The position numbers were made by a program, and so were the translations under genes. A DNA stretch of 64,000 bases from Escherichia phage vB_EcoM_EC001, in sequence record MN445185.1. One strand, written 5' to 3'. This document shows positions 4,798-58,652 of this stretch, piece by piece. Each line of letters opens with the position of its first letter. Position 1 is the stretch's first letter. The notes below the pieces were generated by a model, which was given only the letters and a program-made list of their open reading frames with translations, was not told the origin of the DNA and ran no database searches.

Positions 4798-4825
4798 CAC
4801 AGATAGATATTACCTAAGTGAGATG
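4798..4825. promoter_or_regulatory. conserved promoter-like motif copy 1 (cacAGATAGATATTACCTAAGTGAGATG)
   Basis: One of 7 dispersed copies; closest match to copy at 58724; sits about 50 nt upstream of ATG 4875. Confidence 0.45.
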
Positions 4826-7646: not shown

Positions 7647-7809
7647 TCTAAGGCTCCTATGAAGCTCGTAGGACAACTCATACCATCGGGTAATGCTATC
7701 CCATTACCTGACATTAAAATACGTTTTACGACCTTTATGTGCGCACCATACTCGAAGAAATTTTGCATAGATATTATCTTCGTGAATTATCCTTAAGGAG
7801 CATTTCTCG

Positions 7810-16653: not shown

Positions 16654-16667
16654 ATTGATATTATCTA
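16654..16667. promoter_or_regulatory. promoter-like palindromic motif copy 2 (GATTGATATTATCT)
   Basis: In divergent intergenic region between 15532..16599 (-) and 16806..18659 (+). Confidence 0.4.
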
Positions 16668-16747
16668 TGTGACAGTTCCTGAGAAATGTCTGGACTATGT
16701 GCCTTGTAAGTAAGCGACGGCATACTTGCATTCCATGGAATTACAGG

Positions 16748-16760
16748 CAGATATTATCTC
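16748..16760. promoter_or_regulatory. promoter-like palindromic motif copy 3 (GCAGATATTATCT)
   Basis: About 45 nt upstream of ATG 16806. Confidence 0.4.
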
Positions 16761-16805
16761 TGCGAACCGAACTATGATTGCAATCACTATTAAGGAATAT
16801 TTAAA

Positions 16806-18659
16806 ATGGTAAAAATCGTTGACTCTAACAACAACGCTCAGCAGAACAACACTCAGACTCAAGACACCGCACCACTGGGCGGTCTGGGCAACGAGACTGT
16901 AAAAGTGCAAACTGCTGTGCCGGGTACTTCTACTGTCAGCCAATTCGATAACGCATTTGGCATCCGCAACATCAGCACCTATGCAATGCACTTCACCAAC
17001 CTCCTGGATGAGCTGAAGAAAAGCAACGAATACCTCAACGCATTCCGCTGGGGCACCATCGTCGGCGTGGGTAACGAAATGGGTTCCGCGGCGTATGTCG
17101 CAGGCCAATGGCAGGGCCACTGGCTGTATGGTATCATCTTCTTTGAACGCGGTCAGTCTCTGCGTCTGAAAGAAACTACCAACAACGGCCAGGAAGACTA
17201 CTACACCATCACTGAACTGTTCAACAAAGACGTGCTGGCAGTAGTACAGAAAAACATCATGGAAGCGCATGGTCTGACCAATGCGAACTTCATGATCATC
17301 AACTCCGTACCAGACCTGGGTAAAGTTCTGGATGCTGAGTGGGCACGTACACTGATGGGTCAGATGATGATGGGCATCTTCGGTCGTATCGCAGGCTACC
17401 TGGGTACGCTGAACCTGCGTAAGCATGACCGTTATCAGGCCGCAGTAATGCCGCTGGAAGATGGTGCGGTTGTTGATGCTAACGGCCACGCACAGCGTGC
17501 TGATTTCGCAATCACCGTTGAGCACAGCCCAAGCAACGTAACCGATGCCACTCCGACTCTGCTGGACACCAATCAGGTACAGGTGTATCCGCGTGTATCC
17601 GGTACCGGTTTCGTCAATATGCGTTTCACCGGTCAGAAGCCTGTCGTTAACGGCGTCTACGACCTGAAACAGCTGCAGGCTGAAATCGTAGTAAGTCTGA
17701 TCGATTCTCAAACTGAAGGTGCAATGGCACCGTATGAACGTCAACTGCTGCTGCTGGCTGCATTTGCAGAAATCGCGGCAATCGGTGGCTGGCGTGACCT
17801 GTTTGTGAAACGTCTGAACAAACAAGATCGCAAGTTCTCCCGTGTGGCAGAATACCTGTCCTGGGGTGCTGACGCTCGTCCTGATGTATCCAAAATCGAC
17901 GGTAGCCGTGAAGCTATCGAAGGTTGCCTGGATATGTTCGCACCGCGTGAAGCAGCACTGGTAGTTAGCCATCGTGCCGGTAACGGCCTGGGTGGTCTGT
18001 CTACTTTGCTGTCTGAAATTGCGGTCGGTTACGACAACTCTCTGAAACAGCTGCTCGCTATTCTGAATTCCATGTCCCCGCGTGATCAGAACGGCGAAGT
18101 TGTTGCAGCGACCAGCTTCACTGCAGTATTTGCTTCTGCACTGAAAGCACAGCTGGGCGATGCCTTCAATGGTACCATCCATTGCAGCCACATCGTGAAA
18201 GCAGCCGTACCGACTGTTTCCGGTGTTTACACCGGTACTGCACAGAAACGTAGCTTCCAGGATATGGACCTGATTTCCGTTGTTACCAAACTGGGTGATA
18301 ACGCGAACGACGTCTATAGCTACCTGAACGCACAGTCCTACAGCCACCGTGAACTGAACGAGCGTCAACAGCGTATCTACATGCTGAAACTGGCCGCTTC
18401 TCTGTTCGCATCCAAAGCACCGCAAGCTACCGGTGAATCTCTGGATATGGCTATCAACCCGATCTTCGGTAAATGCCTGCTGGACTTCGTCCGTAACAAC
18501 TGCACCTGGTCTATGACTGGTGTAAATGCCTACAACACGATGGCGACCTCTCTGTTCTTCAACAACGGTGGGGAAGACTTCACGCTGTCTGGCAACGGCC
18601 TGTCTGCAAGCGGTTCCGATTTCGGTCTGGGCGTGACTCTGAGCAACTTCAAACTGTAA
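16806..18659 (+). CDS. abundant protein with host-like codon bias; candidate phage-nucleus shell protein (chimallin-like), function unconfirmed
   Basis: 617-aa ORF with strong preference for ctg/ccg/ggt/cgt/aac codons, two promoter-like motifs upstream, TAAGGAA RBS, low-complexity N-terminal tail, immediately upstream of the RNAP beta-prime N-terminal gene. Confidence is for the CDS, not the function. Confidence 0.7.
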   Translation: MVKIVDSNNNAQQNNTQTQDTAPLGGLGNETVKVQTAVPGTSTVSQFDNAFGIRNISTYAMHFTNLLDELKKSNEYLNAFRWGTIVGVGNEMGSAAYVAGQWQGHWLYGIIFFERGQSLRLKETTNNGQEDYYTITELFNKDVLAVVQKNIMEAHGLTNANFMIINSVPDLGKVLDAEWARTLMGQMMMGIFGRIAGYLGTLNLRKHDRYQAAVMPLEDGAVVDANGHAQRADFAITVEHSPSNVTDATPTLLDTNQVQVYPRVSGTGFVNMRFTGQKPVVNGVYDLKQLQAEIVVSLIDSQTEGAMAPYERQLLLLAAFAEIAAIGGWRDLFVKRLNKQDRKFSRVAEYLSWGADARPDVSKIDGSREAIEGCLDMFAPREAALVVSHRAGNGLGGLSTLLSEIAVGYDNSLKQLLAILNSMSPRDQNGEVVAATSFTAVFASALKAQLGDAFNGTIHCSHIVKAAVPTVSGVYTGTAQKRSFQDMDLISVVTKLGDNANDVYSYLNAQSYSHRELNERQQRIYMLKLAASLFASKAPQATGESLDMAINPIFGKCLLDFVRNNCTWSMTGVNAYNTMATSLFFNNGGEDFTLSGNGLSASGSDFGLGVTLSNFKL

Positions 18660-18687: not shown

Positions 18688-18727
18688 CGGACGGGGGCTA
18701 ACGCCTCCGTCCTTCCCTCTTTTTTTG
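18688..18727 (+). terminator. intrinsic terminator (ggacgggggctaacgcctccgtcc plus T-run)
   Basis: GC-rich hairpin followed by T-run after 16806..18659. Confidence 0.55.
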
Positions 18728-18741
18728 TTGAGGTTGACAGT

Positions 18742-20076
18742 GTGAGAAAGGTACCAAAATTCTACGGAATATCCGGCCGGTTGGTTAGTCAGGATAACTA
18801 TTTGTCCGATTTGCAAATAGAAGCTGCTGCCAAAGGTATTAAACCACCCACTATTATTAACGATGTCGCCGTTAACGGGGATGCGATCGAGGTTGCTGAA
18901 CTTATCGATCGCATGGTACAGAACAGAATCGTTGACGAAGAACTGAACTCTGCACCGATTTGTAGTTTGGATTGTCCGGCACCGATCGCGCATCGTTACA
19001 ATCTCGGTTGTAAGTGTCCGACGTGTGGCTATGTTGTAACTGAACATCGAATTGAATCCGATGTCTGGTTACGTGCACCTGATGAAATGGGTAACTTCGT
19101 CAACCCACGATTCTGGGCAATGTTCAATGCTTTCTTTAATAGCAAGTTGAAGAAGTTTGAACGTAACAAGGTCACTATCGAACGCGGTAATGACTTGATG
19201 ATGTGGATGATTGACCCGTATTACCGTATAGAAGAACCAGACGGTAAACGCGCACATGCTGTGAAACGTGTATTGGAAGAACATGGTTTCGTTCGTGGCT
19301 TGCGCAATCTGGTTGATAACCACGTTAGTATCTTTAACATCCTTACCACGCCAGAAGCCTGGAAGGAAATCTTCGCACCTAATCGGCATAACGCCGCTGA
19401 AGGTGAACGCTTACGTTTACAATGGAAGGAGCTATTCGAAACGCAACGACACGCATTCTTCCCAAGACACTTACCGCTAATCTCCTCTAAACTTATCGTT
19501 ACTGAGGAAGGTCGTCGTGGTGTCATGGTAGACCCAGTGTTCACGGGTGCTATTGATGCGGTGAAAAATATCGCGTTGCTCTATACGCGGCGTAAAGCGA
19601 TCGAACCACGTTTTCTGATTAGTCGTGCTTTGAAAGCGAACCGTCAGTTAACGTACTTCCACATGGACTTCCGTCGTGAGTCTATGGAAGGTAAACCGGG
19701 TGACTATCGTGCGAAATTGGGTTCTACCCACATCCCGTTCGGTGGTCGTGCAACCATCTCACCTATCTCAGAACCACATGATGCCTGGAAGTTAAAAGCA
19801 CCATGGCGTTGGATGGTTGGGTTGATGTCGACCCACATCGAGAACAAACTGCTACGACGCGGTTATTCGTCACGGCAGTGTGAACGTATCGTTGCGAAAG
19901 CGGCAATGCAGTATGACCCGCTTGTAGATGAAATCTTTAAAGAACTGATTCGTGAATCCCCAGGCGGTCTTGGGATCATGGTCATACCGCTACGTAACCC
20001 AACGCTGGTACAGTTGTCTATTCAAACGCTGTACATCGATGAAGTTGTTACCGATGTTAACCAGTGTTCGCTGCGT
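18742..20076 (+). CDS. multisubunit RNA polymerase beta-prime-like subunit, N-terminal fragment, exon 1 (3-prime boundary approximate)
   Basis: GTG start. Zinc-ribbon CSLDCPAPIAHRYNLGCKCPTCG; LRNPTLVQLSIQ...CSL resembles RQPTLHRLGIQ...HPLVC just upstream of the catalytic loop. ORF continues 58 codons into the intron to stop at 20250. Confidence 0.65.
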
Positions 20077-20453
20077 ATCTCTGACCGTGTGATCAAGATG
20101 GCTAACGGTTCGAAAAGAGCCCCATCGGACGGGAAACCTCTGATGCGTATTCTCCTGAAATGCTGGGAAACCCTAAAGCGTATCTACCAGAAATGGGGAC
20201 GAAAGTCTGAAACAACAGATACGATGGCCTACGCTAAACAATACTGCTAACGGTTGTGATAATGGGTAATCAGCAGCGAAGCCTCGTGAGAGGAACGTTC
20301 AACGACTATCGCTGAAATGCGAGTAGGGGTCCCAGTGGACTTCGAAGTGGGAGAACACCTAAGGCGATAGCTATGGTGAAGATATAGTCTGTGCCTTATC
20401 GAGAGATAAGGAGGGTGTCTTAGCACACCTGCTGTATACGGAAACGGTATACG
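20077..20453 (+). ncRNA. group I self-splicing intron (no internal ORF), boundaries +/- about 10 nt
   Basis: Conserved core elements R (GTTCAACGACTA, 20297..20308) and S (AAGATATAGTC, 20379..20389) with complementary gacta/tagtc. Frame changes between flanking coding segments; beta-prime homology stops at CSLR and resumes at DKQDFDGDQ. Confidence 0.75.
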
Positions 20454-20693
20454 GTGGACAAACAGGATTTCGATGGCGACCAGTTCCAGGTACGTTTACC
20501 AGTCGATGAAACTGAGATGAAGTTGGCGCTCCAATTCCGTCCAGATAACGGCTTTATGTCTTCTACTGATGTGGACCGCGTAGAACACGGCATGGTTTTA
20601 CATAACGAGCTAATCAGTATGCAGAACCAGTTCCTTATTGAAGCAGATGAGGATGATGAAGAAGGCATTCCGTTGGAAGCGGTGATGGGCTAA
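20454..20693 (+). CDS. RNA polymerase beta-prime-like N-terminal fragment, exon 2 (catalytic DFDGDQ loop)
   Basis: Begins VDKQDFDGDQFQVRLPVDETEMKLA, matching [23 protein letters not shown]; ends 79 codons later. Confidence 0.65.
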   Translation: MDKQDFDGDQFQVRLPVDETEMKLALQFRPDNGFMSSTDVDRVEHGMVLHNELISMQNQFLIEADEDDEEGIPLEAVMG

Positions 20694-25250: not shown

Positions 25251-26885
25251 ATGAAAATTACGAAGATTAAAGACCGGATGACAATCGAGCATCACGGTCA
25301 AGAGGTCTCATTTATTGGCTTACGTTATCGGAAGGATAACAACGCACCCGACTACATCACTGTTAAAGGTAAACAGATTGCACGCGACAACATTCTCTTC
25401 ATGGAATTACAACGCGTGTGGGATTATTTAACGCCAGACGAACAAGATGAACTGTTCATGGCGTATCTGATGCTGGACGAGCTGGCAAACGAATCGACGG
25501 AAACGCAGCGTAAGCACATGCCGAAGATTGTGCAGACGATTGCGAAGTTCCACAAGGCCGAAGTGTATCGTAAGCTGTATCCCATCGATAAGCTGTGGAT
25601 TCCGCAGAACATGGAAGATACGCACGATGAAATGAACAGTAATTATCCGGAAGCGATGACGTACATTCGTCCGGACTATTACGAGTTGTTGATACTGGTC
25701 CTGATGATTAAACCGTATATTCCGGTGTTCCTTACCATGGGGACGTTCCCGATAGGTAAGAACTTGCCAATCGAAACACATCGGAAAATGGTGTACAATC
25801 TGACATACTGTCTGGAGATGCTTCAAGACACAGAAGTCATGTCTTTACCTGCTATTCCGAAACTGCGTGGGTTCCTACAGACAGTGATGGAAAAGGTAGA
25901 AAAAGAACTGGCAAACAAAGGTACGAACAGCACCAGTTTGTCGGTACTGGCTACGGTGCGGGGCTATGGCACGGATATGATGGAAGATTATATCCTGGCG
26001 TATGCTATTATTAAATTGTTGGCTGTCCGTGAAGTCGGTGGTGAATTACCGGTTGAAATCATGGTTAACAACAATATCGTCACCGGCATGTATTTTCTGG
26101 TTAAACAAGAGATTGAAACAGGTTTTGCAAACAAAATCTCTAACCAGCCGGTGCTGTTGAAAGCGCATCCAGAAAGTGTGGTATTCAATGGCGAAAAGGG
26201 CAAGATAAACGCCATGGATTTGGTGCAGGCACGTTCTCCTGCCCAGATGAAAGAATACGTCCGTACCGAGTACGTATTTAAAGAATACCGCTCTTTCTTG
26301 AAAACAATGCGTCTGGATAATGCCGCTCCAGCAGATGTTAAGTTATTGATTGATTCGCAACTGGCAACACACGACGGTCCTGTCTATACATTGCACGAAT
26401 GGTTAGTCGCATTAGCACTCCATCGTAGCGCGCATTATAAGACGTATACTGAATGTGGACCAGAAGCGTTTCGCTACGGTATGGCGTTGGCGCAGGCAAC
26501 TTATCTCAATTATGGAATGTATGACGTTGCGCAACTGTTAAGTTGCAATATGGTGCGTTCTGAGATGTCTGCCGGTTATGCAGCCGATCCAATTCGATCT
26601 GAACTCAAAGCAGATTTAGATAGATATTATCTTCAGGAGTATCGCAACCCGCGTAATCTCGAACCGCAATCTACACCACGGGAATCACTGACCTTGTTAC
26701 ACAAGGATCACATCAACCCGTATCTGTTCCATCTCAGGGCTACACCAGAAGCAGCTGCGCTGCTGAAGTGTGAGACGGATCAGCCAAACTATATACCTCA
26801 CTTGTCACTGCACAATAGCCTGGCGGAGTTTATGGTGTTGAATGCACGTCGCAAGTTAGAAGAAGTTGAATGGTTTAATTCTTAA
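25251..26885 (+). CDS. hypothetical protein
   Basis: 544-aa ORF downstream of promoter-like motif. Confidence 0.65.
   Translation: MKITKIKDRMTIEHHGQEVSFIGLRYRKDNNAPDYITVKGKQIARDNILFMELQRVWDYLTPDEQDELFMAYLMLDELANESTETQRKHMPKIVQTIAKFHKAEVYRKLYPIDKLWIPQNMEDTHDEMNSNYPEAMTYIRPDYYELLILVLMIKPYIPVFLTMGTFPIGKNLPIETHRKMVYNLTYCLEMLQDTEVMSLPAIPKLRGFLQTVMEKVEKELANKGTNSTSLSVLATVRGYGTDMMEDYILAYAIIKLLAVREVGGELPVEIMVNNNIVTGMYFLVKQEIETGFANKISNQPVLLKAHPESVVFNGEKGKINAMDLVQARSPAQMKEYVRTEYVFKEYRSFLKTMRLDNAAPADVKLLIDSQLATHDGPVYTLHEWLVALALHRSAHYKTYTECGPEAFRYGMALAQATYLNYGMYDVAQLLSCNMVRSEMSAGYAADPIRSELKADLDRYYLQEYRNPRNLEPQSTPRESLTLLHKDHINPYLFHLRATPEAAALLKCETDQPNYIPHLSLHNSLAEFMVLNARRKLEEVEWFNS
26612..26636. promoter_or_regulatory. 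promoter-like motif copy 5, internal to the 3-prime end of CDS 25251..26885
   Basis: AGATTTAGATAGATATTATCTTCAGG about 260 nt upstream of the next gene. Confidence 0.35.
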
Positions 26886-30405: not shown

Positions 30406-32643
30406 ATGAAAACACCAGTCGAACTCATGTCAAGCGTTGCTGACCGTGAGGTGAATATCACTGGCGTATCTGGGGCACGTGCCTCAATGGTGGGTGGACA
30501 TATGAAGTCGGCGGTACCACTGGACAATCCAGATCCGACTATCCATTTTACCGGCGCTGATGTGAACTACCACGATTATTGTTTTAACGATATCGTGGAA
30601 GACAGTGGTACCGTGTGCAGTTACACAACCAAAGAAGGTGTTACTCGTGCAGCTGTTTTTGCACGCTATGGTCGTGAAGGGGATCACGATCCGCTCCAAC
30701 ATGTTATCTTCTTCACGCGCGCAGATTTAACCAACCAGCGCAAAGTGATGATTGATGTAATCGATATCAAGTATTACACCAACCACGATAACATTTTCTC
30801 GTCTAAGAAAGAGGCTACTGGGAAACTTCAGGCGTTGCTGCGCGGACAGACGCAGCACCTGGAAAAAGATGAAATGCTTACCGTACTGCCGGCACAGAAA
30901 GACGGTGAGTTTGTCGATGGGGTCAACCTGCACACTGTGACAATGTCGCACCCGGACATTATCGAGGACTCGTACACCATCTCCGAAACTGCAGCGAAGG
31001 CGATGCACGCTTATGGTTTGCGTGCAATCGACTTTACCTTGCGCGACGACGAGTACCTGCTTGATACGTATGGGACAACGGGTATTGATGGCGTTCGTCG
31101 GCCACAGTACCTGCCCAATAAAGGACAGGCAATTCGCGATGATGGGTTGGTTATAGCCGCGCGTCGTTTCGATAAGCTGTGGGCGGCTATTGACTCGCAC
31201 GTGGGCGAAACACAACATATCTCTCCACACTTCGACCGTTGTGAGTATGTTGATGCTGACCCTGAGCATTACAAAGCGCGTCAGGCCGGCGACTTTGAAA
31301 AGATGGAACGTACCGGTTCTCGTGTCGTTGATATTCAGGTATGGCGGGACGAAACCAAATGCGATCGTGGTGTTAACAATATCGCATGTACCGAAGAGAA
31401 CAAACGCGAGTTAGATCACTACGCGAACGCTTTGAAACGTTTTTACAATGATATCGTGCGGTTCTATTTTGCGATGTCCAAAGACAAGAACATTGTCTGG
31501 TCACCGAAAGCGTTTGAGATCCTTGACAAGGCGTTCTGTTCTGAGACGTATGAAGTCTATAACGACTTCCGTGAAGAGATTGGTCGTGAATACGATGAAG
31601 CCATGCGTAAAGGTGAGTATAACCGTTCTGCTGATAAGAACGTGTTGAACAAACTGGCGCAGCCGGTTCAGCGTGGTCTCTGGGACCCAATTGGTAGCTA
31701 CACGATACGCATCGTGGTACGTTATCCAATCCCAGTTACCGTCTCATCGAAAATCACCGACCGTTCAGGTACAAAAGGTATCGTGGGTGCAGTGCGGCCT
31801 GATGAAGAAATGCCGATTAACGAGTTCGGAGAACGTGTGCATGTCATTCGTTCCATGAACGCCGTAATTCGTCGTTCGACTTATGCTGCGCTGTTCCACA
31901 TGTATTGGTCTGCTGCATCCGAGCAGTTGAAGATGCGGTTGAAACCATTACTTGCCGCCAACCAGGTTGACGAAGCCTGGGAAATCCTGATGGACTATAT
32001 CGATCGCTATAACCCACGCTGGACATTCTATCTCAATGCCAGTCACCCGGATACTGGGTCACGTCTGGAACTCTTTAAAGAGATTTACGACTTCACGATT
32101 CGTATCTGGCTTCCCCACGAATTGAATGCTACCCAGGTAGAAATCTGCCGTGCTCTAGGCGAGTATGCACCACGCAAGTCTAAGCTACTGATTACTAACT
32201 ATCAGGGTGAGAAAGAGTGGACGAAGAACCAGTTCTACGTCGGCATGGTAGAGACTCTGCGCCTGGATAAAACCGGTCGTGAGTTCTCCAGTATCTCGTC
32301 GATGTACACGAACTATTTGGGTTGTATTGATGCATCCAACCAAGGACGTGGTTCATATCCGATTAACCTGAAAGGGTTGAAGTGGGGTGGTCCTTCCGAG
32401 CAGCGTCTTACCGACGGCTTTGGTCCGGGCAACTTCCCCGAAACTCATGACCGCGCTAATAACCCTGCGGTACACCGTGCGATCGTAACGGGGTTGTATA
32501 ACTCGCCAACACCAACCAATCCGGGGGTGCTGGTCGATCGTAAGAAACTGCCAATGGGAGATTCGCAGATTGACAGGATGATACGTAACATCCATCGCTG
32601 TGAAGGTTTTGAATTAGTGCGTCCAATTCGGGAGGATAAATAA
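30406..32643 (+). CDS. multisubunit RNA polymerase beta-like subunit, C-terminal half
   Basis: GARASMVGGHMKSAVPL resembles GANMQRQAVPTL; IIEDSYTISE resembles NFEDSILVSE; DRSGTKGIVGAVRPDEEMPINEFGERVHVIRSMNAVIRRSTYAALFHMY resembles GRHGNKGVIS..PVEDMPY..G.PVDIVLNPLGVPSRMN.GQI.E.HLG. Confidence 0.65.
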   Translation: MKTPVELMSSVADREVNITGVSGARASMVGGHMKSAVPLDNPDPTIHFTGADVNYHDYCFNDIVEDSGTVCSYTTKEGVTRAAVFARYGREGDHDPLQHVIFFTRADLTNQRKVMIDVIDIKYYTNHDNIFSSKKEATGKLQALLRGQTQHLEKDEMLTVLPAQKDGEFVDGVNLHTVTMSHPDIIEDSYTISETAAKAMHAYGLRAIDFTLRDDEYLLDTYGTTGIDGVRRPQYLPNKGQAIRDDGLVIAARRFDKLWAAIDSHVGETQHISPHFDRCEYVDADPEHYKARQAGDFEKMERTGSRVVDIQVWRDETKCDRGVNNIACTEENKRELDHYANALKRFYNDIVRFYFAMSKDKNIVWSPKAFEILDKAFCSETYEVYNDFREEIGREYDEAMRKGEYNRSADKNVLNKLAQPVQRGLWDPIGSYTIRIVVRYPIPVTVSSKITDRSGTKGIVGAVRPDEEMPINEFGERVHVIRSMNAVIRRSTYAALFHMYWSAASEQLKMRLKPLLAANQVDEAWEILMDYIDRYNPRWTFYLNASHPDTGSRLELFKEIYDFTIRIWLPHELNATQVEICRALGEYAPRKSKLLITNYQGEKEWTKNQFYVGMVETLRLDKTGREFSSISSMYTNYLGCIDASNQGRGSYPINLKGLKWGGPSEQRLTDGFGPGNFPETHDRANNPAVHRAIVTGLYNSPTPTNPGVLVDRKKLPMGDSQIDRMIRNIHRCEGFELVRPIREDK

Positions 32644-56037: not shown

Positions 56038-57315
56038 ATGGCAAACTTTGTAAAAAGTAAACTCGCCCGCGAGTCCGTTGAAGCTACCGGCGACGTAATC
56101 GACGGTCTGAGCAACGTTGAACCGGCAGAAGAGAACATCGACGTTCAGCTGGCAGAAGTTGCGTCTATCGACGGTCAGCTGGAACAGCTCGATGGTGACC
56201 AGGAAACCCTGGCTGCTGATACCGAGCGTACCGAAGCTGCTATCGACGCTGCTGACGAAAAAATCGAAAACGGTGAAGAGATGCCTGAAGAAGCCATCGC
56301 TCACACCGAAGTGGCGCAGGAATCTATCCGTAAGCGTTGGGCTATCGATCGTACCAAACTGGCACGCGAATCTTATCGCCGCGGCCGTGGCATGACCAAA
56401 GCAGCTCAGGAAGGCTGGAAAGAAACCCTGAAAGATCTGTTCAAGCGCTTCGTTGAACTGTGTAAAGCAGTTATCGCGAAAGCGAAAGAGCTGAAGCTGA
56501 AATACATCAACGTTGGTAAGTCTGCACAGAAACGTGCGAAAGCTTACCAAGAGATGCTGCGTAAGCTCGGTAAGCAGAAGAAAGAAAACATCTCTGGCGG
56601 CTTTATTAGCAAACTGTCTATCGAAGGCGACTTCGATGTGGCCAACTCCATCGCTATCGCGAAAGAGCTGACCGGCGGTAAAGCGAAAGATGCTATCAAC
56701 AAGCTGTCCTCTCAGGCGGCTGACTCTGCCGTAGCGATCACCAAAACTGCAGAAGGTACTGCAACGGCTGCTAAAGGCGCCGTTGATGTTGCCCTGTTCG
56801 GTACCGCTGCTAAGAAACTGCGCACCCTGCCGCAGTTCGAAGATGGCGAAGGCGGTCAGAAAGTTCTGGCACTGCCAGGCAACGCCTATGTGCAGATCGG
56901 TAGCAAAACTCTGGCCGGCGGCCAGGAGTACACTGCGGTGGCGTTCCTGTCAACTGGCGACTCTACCGACACGAAAGAGATTGCTACCCCGGCAATTACC
57001 GCACTGGCGTCTGCAGCAACCGCTCTTGATGCGATCGGTAAAGGTTTCGAGAAAGTGCTGCAGGACTTCCGCTCCTATGACGCCGAAGTTGAGAAACTGG
57101 AGCAGGCTGCTAGCAAAGCTGCTGCTGCCCTGGATAAATCCAACGACGAAGGCGAGTGGGAAGCACTGCGTAATGCACGTACTGCAGCCGACCAGGCTGT
57201 GCGTAACTACCAGACTCTGAACCGTGCCGTGGCGCATGTTGGTAACACTGTTATCAGCGGCCTGAACGGTTACATCGGTGCTGGTATCGGCGCGTACGAA
57301 AAGTCTAAAGCTTAA
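56038..57315 (+). CDS. abundant paralog A with acidic N-terminal propeptide-like region; possibly virion or internal protein
   Basis: 425-aa ORF, host-like codon usage; first 15 aa identical to 57393..58652; shared VAQESIRKRW and C-terminal GLNGYIGAGIGAYEKSKA. Confidence 0.7.
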   Translation: MANFVKSKLARESVEATGDVIDGLSNVEPAEENIDVQLAEVASIDGQLEQLDGDQETLAADTERTEAAIDAADEKIENGEEMPEEAIAHTEVAQESIRKRWAIDRTKLARESYRRGRGMTKAAQEGWKETLKDLFKRFVELCKAVIAKAKELKLKYINVGKSAQKRAKAYQEMLRKLGKQKKENISGGFISKLSIEGDFDVANSIAIAKELTGGKAKDAINKLSSQAADSAVAITKTAEGTATAAKGAVDVALFGTAAKKLRTLPQFEDGEGGQKVLALPGNAYVQIGSKTLAGGQEYTAVAFLSTGDSTDTKEIATPAITALASAATALDAIGKGFEKVLQDFRSYDAEVEKLEQAASKAAAALDKSNDEGEWEALRNARTAADQAVRNYQTLNRAVAHVGNTVISGLNGYIGAGIGAYEKSKA

Positions 57316-57392: not shown

Positions 57393-58652
57393 ATGGCAAA
57401 CTTTGTAAAAAGTAAACTCGCTCGTGAATCTGTCGAAGGCGCAGGCACTGTCGTTCCAGATGGTATCGAGCTGCCGGCTGAGTCCGTGGAAGGTACTCTG
57501 GCTGACATCGAGCATGACACCAAACCGATCGACCAGCTGGACGCAGAAGCAGACGTGCTGGCAGAAGACGGTGACGAAACTGATGCACAGCTGGATGCAG
57601 TTGATGCTGCTGAAGCTGCCGCTGACGGTGAAGGTGAAGATGGCGAAGAGCCAATGGAAGTGGAAGAAGATATGCCTGACGATGCTGCTGAGCAGCTGGA
57701 CGTTGCGCAGGAATCTATCCGTAAACGTTGGGCATTCGACCACCGCGTAAGCGTTGCGCAGGAATCTTACGGTGCACGTAAGCGTCGTCAGGTTGCTCGT
57801 GAAAGCCTGTGGGAAGATATCAAAGCCTTCCTGAAGCGCATCTACGAGTGGCTGAAAGAGCAGGGCCGTAAAATCAAAGATCGCTGGCTCAAGTTCAGCA
57901 ACCAGGGTAAATCCATTCAGGCGCGTGCTAAGAAATATGACGCTGCGCTGTCTGGCCTGGGCAAGCAGAAGAAAGACACCGTTTCCGGTGGCTTCATCAA
58001 GAACCTGACCTCTAACGGCAAGTTCCTGGGTGACAACCTGCAGGTGCTGAAAGAGCTGCTGGCTAACATCGGTGGCGTTTACAGCATGCAAGAAGACGTC
58101 GTTCGTGAAGCAACTGTAATGGTAACTTCTATTGAGTCTGGCAAACACGTTGGCGGTTTCGCTGCAGCGGTTAATAAAGCAGTTTCTGGTAAGTCCGGCG
58201 ATCTGCAGCTGCTGGGCAACCAGATCGGTAAAGCTGACGTTAAAGTCAACGGTGACGACCTGGAAGCATCCTTCACTGTTATCGATGCAGAAGGCAGCGT
58301 AGAGCAGTCCGTAGCGACTCCTTCTCTGACCACCCTGAGTGGTCTGGTGGCGTTCTTCAATCAGCTGGGTAAAGCTGTGGAAGAAAACGTGAAAGCGTAC
58401 CACAAGAACAACCAGGCGCAAGAGAAGTACGAGCAGGCTATTGACAAGCTGCTGAAGCGTATCGACAGCGTGAAGATCGACGACAACGCCGAGCTGACCA
58501 ACAACGTACGTGTTGCTCGCCGTGCTATCACCATCGCGAACCAGTTCGTTTCCTGGACCGAACGTTGCGTTGCAACTGGCCAGAAAAACCTGATCGCCGG
58601 TGTTAACGGCTACATCAGCGCCGGTATCGGTGCTTATGAAAAGGCTAAGTAA
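57393..58652 (+). CDS. abundant paralog B (tandem duplicate of 56038..57315)
   Basis: 419-aa ORF; same N-terminus, AQE motifs and C-terminal GVNGYISAGIGAYEKAK; followed by terminator. Confidence 0.7.
   Translation: MANFVKSKLARESVEGAGTVVPDGIELPAESVEGTLADIEHDTKPIDQLDAEADVLAEDGDETDAQLDAVDAAEAAADGEGEDGEEPMEVEEDMPDDAAEQLDVAQESIRKRWAFDHRVSVAQESYGARKRRQVARESLWEDIKAFLKRIYEWLKEQGRKIKDRWLKFSNQGKSIQARAKKYDAALSGLGKQKKDTVSGGFIKNLTSNGKFLGDNLQVLKELLANIGGVYSMQEDVVREATVMVTSIESGKHVGGFAAAVNKAVSGKSGDLQLLGNQIGKADVKVNGDDLEASFTVIDAEGSVEQSVATPSLTTLSGLVAFFNQLGKAVEENVKAYHKNNQAQEKYEQAIDKLLKRIDSVKIDDNAELTNNVRVARRAITIANQFVSWTERCVATGQKNLIAGVNGYISAGIGAYEKAK

Follow-up and report, generated by a model that had tools for sequence, protein, structure and literature searches.

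Chimallin hides the DNA of its phage family from restriction and CRISPR nucleases. Knowing which gene is chmA in a given phage matters for phage therapy, for studies of defence and for annotation. In phage SPN3US, ACQ60_gp244 was named as a diverged chimallin homologue, and the square lattices in lysates of this phage were credited to chimallin; their repeat, a 67-Å unit read as a periodicity of 13.5 nm, is described as similar to that of the 201phi2-1 and Goslar shells (Laughlin et al. 2022, PMC9365700). SPN3US lysates contain tetragonal p4 protein sheets with a spacing of 67 Å (PMC7552025), whose protein is chimallin by interpretation. The SPN3US protein called gp22 occurs in large amounts in infected cells; mature virions lack it (PMC7552025, PMC7411985). 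For gp39 (ChmA) of the Erwinia phage Asesino, a GFP fusion forms a ring around the DAPI-stained phage DNA, and the gene next to it, gp40, encodes the nvRNAP beta-prime 1 subunit (Prichard et al. 2025, PMC11724907). In phiKZ, chmA (054) is followed by the polymerase gene 055. The two are co-transcribed, and knock-down of chmA abolishes nucleus formation (PMC12571901). The identity of the protein discussed here is already published, as SPN3US 'gp244' (Laughlin et al. 2022) and as Asesino gp39 (Prichard et al. 2025).

We analyzed a window of 64,000 nucleotides from Escherichia phage vB_EcoM_EC001 (MN445185.1), an SPN3US-like jumbo phage of the genus Seoulvirus in the chimallivirus group. The first-pass annotation had marked an ORF of 617 amino acids, starting with ATG on the plus strand, and guessed from its position and expression features that it encodes the phage-nucleus shell protein. 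The limits of the ORF were confirmed exactly (Table 1). We put at about 95 % the probability that its product is chimallin (ChmA), the main protein of the phage nucleus; by homology, the protein should localize to the shell in this phage. The earlier guess is supported by the chimallin fold of the protein, by profile homology and by the GFP ring formed by Asesino gp39.

Table 1. Features of the chmA locus of vB_EcoM_EC001, with positions counted from the first nucleotide of the window.
Feature	Position	Strand	Remarks
Promoter-like motif, distal copy ATTGATATTATCT	16654..16666	+	139 nt upstream of chmA ATG; exact 10-mer at 16657
Promoter-like motif, proximal copy GCAGATATTATCT	16747..16759	+	ends 46 nt before chmA ATG; exact 10-mer at 16750
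Shine–Dalgarno-like AAGGA	16792..16796	+	9 nt upstream of chmA ATG; read from sequence
chmA coding sequence	16806..18659	+	probable chimallin, major phage-nucleus shell protein; 617 aa, 67.1 kDa
N-terminal tail, residues 1–42	16806..16931	+	conserved MVK-x-V start, then a low-complexity, indel-rich, disordered stretch
Conserved segment before core, residues 43–56	16932..16973	+	conserved block; position matches the 201phi2-1 NTS
Folded two-domain core, residues 57–571	16974..18518	+	alpha/beta N-domain and GNAT-like C-domain
C-terminal tail, residues 572–617	18519..18656	+	two conserved blocks with a variable linker between; candidate CTS1 and CTS2
Terminator-like hairpin GGACGGGGGC-TAAC-GCCTCCGTCC	18689..18726 (whole element; hairpin 18689–18712)	+	seven-T run at 18720–18726; sequence and fold
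Exon 1, non-virion RNAP beta-prime N-terminal subunit gene	18742..20109	+	phrog_2987, E 5e-155; aligned with the SPN3US gene, which lacks the intron
Group I intron, 356 nt	20110..20465	+	Rfam RF00028, 69.4 bits (gathering score 50), E 5.8e-17
Exon 2, RNAP beta-prime N-terminal subunit gene	20466..20693	+	phrog_2987 positions 418–477, E 6.5e-17

The protein is 99.0–99.8 % identical to proteins in 22 records of Salmonella, Escherichia and Proteus phages, and the gene coordinates around chmA are identical in Escherichia phage vB_EcoM_Lh1B. The SPN3US orthologue (YP_009153316.1) is 99.5 % identical and has the same neighbours; it is effectively the same gene. Asesino gp39 is 64.3 % identical over the full length. 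A tblastn search of 50,697 phage records (E up to 10) listed matches only from Salmonella, Erwinia, Cronobacter, Proteus and Escherichia phages.

The SPN3US protein goes by several names: ACQ60_gp244 in RefSeq, SPN3US_0022 in GenBank, 'gp22' in the usage of the Thomas laboratory and 'gp244' in Laughlin et al. 2022. One protein has thus been discussed as a possible head scaffold under the number gp22 and called chimallin under the number gp244. The label 'gp244' also names an unrelated piece of the virion RNA polymerase. The accession YP_009153538, apparently cited in at least one preprint as the SPN3US chimallin, belongs to a virion protein of 240 aa that shows no significant similarity to the ORF. 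There are 72 matching GenBank phage records; all of the 60 that were listed leave the protein unnamed ('hypothetical protein').

Direct sequence searches do not place the protein. Scans of the ORF against NCBIfam and Pfam, the latter with E cut-offs of 0.01 and 10, matched no family, and the only match in PHROGs was phrog_8316, which is labelled 'unknown function'. A phmmer search against the PDB sequences returned nothing even at E 10, as did an hmmsearch of the same sequences with a 28-sequence family profile (A1). The fold search settles the identity where these searches fail. An AlphaFold model was built from the family alignment (pTM 0.81) and compared with known structures using Foldseek. 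The nine best matches in the PDB are all chimallin/PhuN structures (Goslar, 201phi2-1 and phiPA3), with E values from 2.5e-20 to 3.4e-16 and TM scores of 0.57–0.70; the tenth match has an E value of 0.035. In BFVD the model matches proteins of approximately 600–690 aa from the large phages Noxifer, RP12, RSF1, Eowyn and pTD1. Neither list contains a capsid, sheath or tube fold.

Sequence homology to the known chimallins emerges only after iteration. Profile A1 found 25 proteins among 1.84 billion representative proteins, and it reaches one of them, P0050, at E 9.4e-5. P0050 passes the gathering threshold of the Pfam family PF25677, Chimallin_Phikzvirus (35.4 bits vs. 27), and matches the Goslar chimallin 7sqt at E 8.6e-9. 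Widening the family profile with the new proteins found by A1 gave profile A2. In the PDB, A2 matches almost the whole of phiPA3 PhuN (8fne; E 8.4e-21); it also matches the 201phi2-1 chimallin (7sqq/8igg) at about 2e-7. Apart from chimallins, there is no match below E 0.1. Other distant profile matches (P0045, P0049, P0051 and P0052) returned nothing from the PDB with phmmer, and the bridge to the chimallins is provided only by P0050 and A2. Several close homologues carry a precomputed match to PF25677.3. Between chimallin and capsid models, the structure and profile comparisons favour chimallin.

The architecture of the protein resembles that of a known chimallin. The 201phi2-1 chimallin consists of an N-terminal tail (residues 1–47), which is dispensable, an N-terminal segment (NTS, 48–61), an N-domain (62–228), a C-domain (229–581) and the segments CTS1 (590–611) and CTS2 (622–631). 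The layout of the protein studied here matches it, with candidate counterparts of the tail, NTS, CTS1 and CTS2 at corresponding positions. The N-terminal tail had been described as disordered in the first-pass annotation, and the model agrees: the pLDDT is 25–35 over residues 1–50 and stays low through residue 56. Large hydrophobic residues (FWYILM) make up 5 % of residues 7–46, compared with 26 % of the whole protein, and no part of the family alignment is richer in indels than the tail. A conserved F-D-x-A-F-G block (47–52) lies immediately before the folded core. By analogy with the NTS, the segment around it probably docks on a neighbouring protomer. The core itself is compact and superposes on the solved chimallins. 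In the C-terminal tail, the conserved blocks are S-L-F-x-N-N-G-G-E-x-F-x-L-S-G-N-G (582–598) and S-D-F-G-L-G-V (604–610), and the pLDDT is below 50 at residues 580–604. The correspondence with 201phi2-1 suggests that these blocks act as CTS1 and CTS2.

The C-domain of chimallin has a proposed evolutionary source in AtaT and TacT, toxins of the GNAT fold that acetylate tRNA. Chimallin differs from these toxins in its additional N-domain and tails, and no catalytic role is known for it. A glycine-rich loop, H-R-A-G-N-G-x-G-G-L (389–398), is conserved in the clade of the window phage. It lies at a strand–helix junction and resembles GNAT motif A. The loop could point to a second activity retained from a GNAT ancestor, such as acetyltransferase activity or the ability to bind acetyl-CoA or a nucleotide, so that the chimallin would be more than an inert brick. 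We consider this very unlikely. The protein has no sequence-family match to AtaT or TacT, and a Pfam scan relaxed to E 10 matches no GNAT family. The active-site residues of AtaT are missing from the published chimallins. The register of the motif is off by one residue, and glycine-rich turns can be kept for structural reasons alone.

Distant relatives and phiPA3 have only a degenerate form of the loop, and the phiPA3 chimallin is without the glycine-rich sequence of the window clade. The SPN3US/Asesino clade may have kept an ancestral GNAT feature that was lost in phiPA3 chimallin and the distant relatives, with the invariant motif at the acetyl-CoA pyrophosphate site; we regard this as very unlikely. 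If the loop did bind a small molecule such as CoA or a nucleotide, the clade would stand functionally between acetyltransferases of the toxin type and shell proteins with a purely architectural role, and the shell could sense or gate metabolites.

Codon usage is the next line of evidence on the chimallin and on the two remaining explanations. Codon adaptation was calculated with the E. coli w-values of Sharp and Li. The CAI of chmA is 0.659, compared with a mean of 0.335 (sd 0.108) for the 60 long ORFs of the window (z = 3.0). Two ORFs have higher values, 0.674 and 0.671; they encode paralogous internal head proteins (56038–57315 and 57393–58652). The effective number of codons of chmA is 34.6, the minimum of the window. 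The ORF had been said to have the strongest codon bias in the window. This is true by the effective number of codons; by CAI it ranks third of the 60, so that only a place in the top three stands.

[quoted passage not shown] This role was proposed for SPN3US gp22 before chimallin had been described. In prohead-rich preparations of protease mutants, gp22 reaches approximately the level of the major capsid protein, and it is missing from the mature virion; the authors of that study suggested a scaffold or core function (PMC7411985). Large chimallin sheets co-sedimenting with the proheads explain the abundance of gp22 in these preparations, however, and the fold, the localization of the Asesino orthologue and the gene neighbourhood are all contrary to a scaffold. 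We therefore judge this role to be highly improbable. That the ORF encodes the major capsid protein, the tail sheath or another virion structural protein, the alternative named in the first-pass annotation, has next to no probability: its very high codon adaptation and large size are as expected of an abundant structural protein, but no capsid or sheath fold is matched and the SPN3US orthologue is reported to be absent from virions.

Upstream of the chimallin gene, a spacer of 206 bp separates the chmA ATG from the ATG (16599) of a divergent gene, which encodes a family B DNA polymerase (PF20286, E 4e-284). Two copies of a promoter-like motif had been noted here, and the spacer does contain two exact plus-strand copies of the 10-mer GATATTATCT. 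There are 6 exact copies in the 64 kb. Allowing up to one mismatch gives 17 matches, where 2.9 are expected, and none of 100 shuffled sequences reaches 17. The probability that six copies scattered at random would include two within 185 bp is approximately 1.5e-4. Other strong copies of the 13-mer extended consensus ATAGATATTATCT are found at 7767, 25204, 26620 and 30363, and at 4803 with one mismatch. All of these are on the plus strand. Three of them end 30–34 nt before a start codon, and one of the three precedes the RNA polymerase subunit gene at 30406. The distal copy upstream of chmA has one mismatch to the 13-mer and is kept in SPN3US and Asesino; the GATATTAT core of the proximal copy is kept in Asesino. 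Asesino retains both copies at the same positions in a spacer that has otherwise diverged, with the protein at 64 % identity.

Early operons of jumbo phages are preceded by a phage-specific, highly conserved AT-rich motif of approximately 10 nt near −10, and this class of motif is taken as the promoter of the virion polymerase (PMC7598289). From their enrichment, position and conservation, we infer that the motifs upstream of chmA are early promoters of the virion RNAP. Two other assignments were considered. The distal copy probably does not act on the divergent minus-strand gene: like all the other strong sites, it matches the 10-mer exactly in the plus orientation alone. For a sigma-70 promoter, the region offers one weak 9/12 match, which overlaps the region of the start codon and is no better than those in shuffled sequence.

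The gene directly downstream of chmA had been annotated as the N-terminal part of RNAP beta-prime. It matches phrog_2987, 'RNA polymerase beta subunit', and the gene carries the catalytic DFDGD motif of beta-prime, in agreement with that annotation. The parallel that had been drawn with phiKZ, in which the shell gene lies upstream of the nvRNAP beta-prime gene, also holds. The order of chmA and the polymerase gene agrees with both Asesino gp39/gp40 and phiKZ 054/055 (PMC12571901). With RNAP subunit genes at 18742 and 30406, the window has the genome context of a chimallivirus.

A hairpin lies between the chmA stop codon and the polymerase gene (Table 1). It is kept in Asesino with a compensatory change from G–C to A–U. 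A scan for consensus terminators misses this element because its stem and T run are 7 nt apart. The hairpin could raise the output of ChmA relative to the polymerase subunit. The polymerase gene is itself split by a group I intron without a long ORF, which is inserted just ahead of the codons for the catalytic DFDGD motif. The last nucleotide is U in exon 1 and G in the intron. Predicted removal of the intron restores KMANG/DFDGDQ (exon junction at the slash) as in SPN3US, and at the DNA level exon 2 and the 3′ end of the SPN3US gene are 98.3 % identical.

Two motif copies, optimal codons and a terminator-like hairpin together suggest early timing and high expression of chmA in this phage. By homology with the chimallins of 201phi2-1, Goslar, phiPA3 and phiKZ, the following mechanism can be proposed. 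Transcription of chmA would start very early and be strong, from one or both of the AT-rich upstream motifs, which appear to be of the kind recognized by the injected virion RNA polymerase. Host-optimal codons would then allow efficient translation of ChmA. The 67-kDa protein would self-assemble, probably through its tails by analogy with 201phi2-1: the short N-terminal segment would tie the two-domain cores into tetramers, and the two short C-terminal segments on flexible linkers would join tetramer to tetramer. The outcome would be a flexible square lattice, one molecule thick, that closes around the replicating phage DNA. Such a shell would exclude host nucleases and CRISPR and restriction enzymes, while transcription and replication continue inside.

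The practical value of this analysis is one of bookkeeping, as the identity given in the literature is not reflected in the sequence databases. It adds independent confirmation from structure and profiles, a reconciliation of the names gp22 and gp244, and the conserved dual motif and hairpin. It also indicates that position and expression signals suffice to pick chmA in a very diverged clade.

The distance to the solved chimallins is considerable. Those of 201phi2-1 (gp105), Goslar, phiPA3 (gp53) and phiKZ (gp54; PDB IDs: 7SQQ–7SQV, 8IGG and 8FNE; PF25677) are 12–13 % identical to the protein of the window in structural alignments and are not linked to its clade by single-sequence or first-round profile searches. 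SPN3US is the nearest system. Its protein differs by few substitutions, and of the two phages only that of the window has a group I intron in the polymerase gene that follows. Asesino infects Erwinia and belongs to the genus Erskinevirus, and its polymerase gene is annotated as a single uninterrupted CDS, whereas that of the window carries the intron. The locus is otherwise laid out alike in Asesino and the window: the divergent upstream gene, chmA with two motif copies before it and the hairpin after it, the nvRNAP beta-prime 1 gene, and then the same downstream genes.

The gene for the N-terminal beta-prime subunit of the non-virion RNA polymerase (18742-20693, plus strand), directly downstream of chmA, is interrupted by a group I intron. 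The intron is inserted directly 5' of the catalytic DFDGD motif, and no long ORF is present within its 356 nt. The last base of exon 1 is U and the last base of the intron is G. Removal of the intron restores KMANG joined to DFDGDQ, which matches the SPN3US gene, from which the intron is absent. Among the relatives, it is carried by Lh1B, 1252, JN03, SPLA3 and SPLA5c. The Lh1B annotation splits the intron-bearing gene into 'beta subunit 1' and 'beta subunit 2', each entered as a CDS of its own.

Features located in the window
Feature	Position	Strand	Remarks
Promoter-like motif ATAGATATTATCT, further copies	4803, 7767, 25204, 26620, 30363	+
Invariant glycine-rich loop H-R-A-G-N-G-L-G-G-L	17970-17999	+	ORF residues 389-398
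GC-rich 10-bp hairpin with T7 run	18689-18726	+	Between chmA stop codon and polymerase gene start
Group I intron, 356 nt	20110-20465	+	Rfam RF00028, 69.4 bits, E 5.8e-17
Two adjoining paralogous 'internal head protein' genes	56038-57315, 57393-58652	+	phrog_2497

The hairpin that separates chmA from the polymerase gene is kept in Erwinia phage Asesino, with a compensatory change of G-C to A-U. The consensus terminator scan made no call at this hairpin. Its possible roles are those of a terminator, of an attenuator or of an element that stabilises the mRNA.

Three of the five further copies of the promoter-like motif, all of which are on the plus strand, end 30-34 nt 5' of start codons. Of these three, one stands ahead of a gene for an RNA polymerase subunit (30406-32643, phrog_3295). 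The 3' end of an ORF (25251-26885) contains the copy at 26620. The first-pass annotation had given the strongest codon bias in the window to the chimallin ORF; the highest CAI values are those of the two internal head protein genes (0.674 and 0.671), slightly above that of chimallin.

The chimallin homologue of SPN3US (NC_027402.1 15768-17621) bears two numbers, ACQ60_gp244 in RefSeq and SPN3US_0022 ('gp22') in GenBank. Papers from the Thomas laboratory call it 'gp22'. [quoted passage not shown] The accession given for 'SPN3US chimallin' in a preprint (10.1101/2024.12.31.630880) is YP_009153538. This is ACQ60_gp022, a 240-aa virion protein that adjoins the head protease (gene at NC_027402.1 220023-220745). 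Comparison with the chimallin ORF found no significant similarity, and YP_009153538 was rejected as the SPN3US chimallin.

In several Salmonella phage SPFM records (e.g. LR535907, LR535908 and LR535911), the tblastn matches to the chimallin gene consist solely of 8-15 short pieces, and the proteins called there (homologues P0029-P0032) are garbled. These fragmentary matches and garbled proteins suggest assemblies with many frameshift errors and not real decay of the gene. The protein database holds precomputed matches to Pfam PF25677.3 for close homologues of the window protein (P0005, P0008, P0015, P0019-P0021 and P0023-P0025), whereas hmmscan with PF25677.1 gave no match for P0005, P0008, P0015, P0020 or the window protein itself. 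The discrepancy is probably due to the difference in model version.

The glycine-rich loop is situated between a predicted strand and a predicted helix in the GNAT-like domain of the ORF, and is kept in homologues down to approximately 29% identity. In phiPA3 PhuN and the more distant relatives the loop is degenerate. It is similar to the acetyl-CoA-binding motif A of GNAT enzymes.
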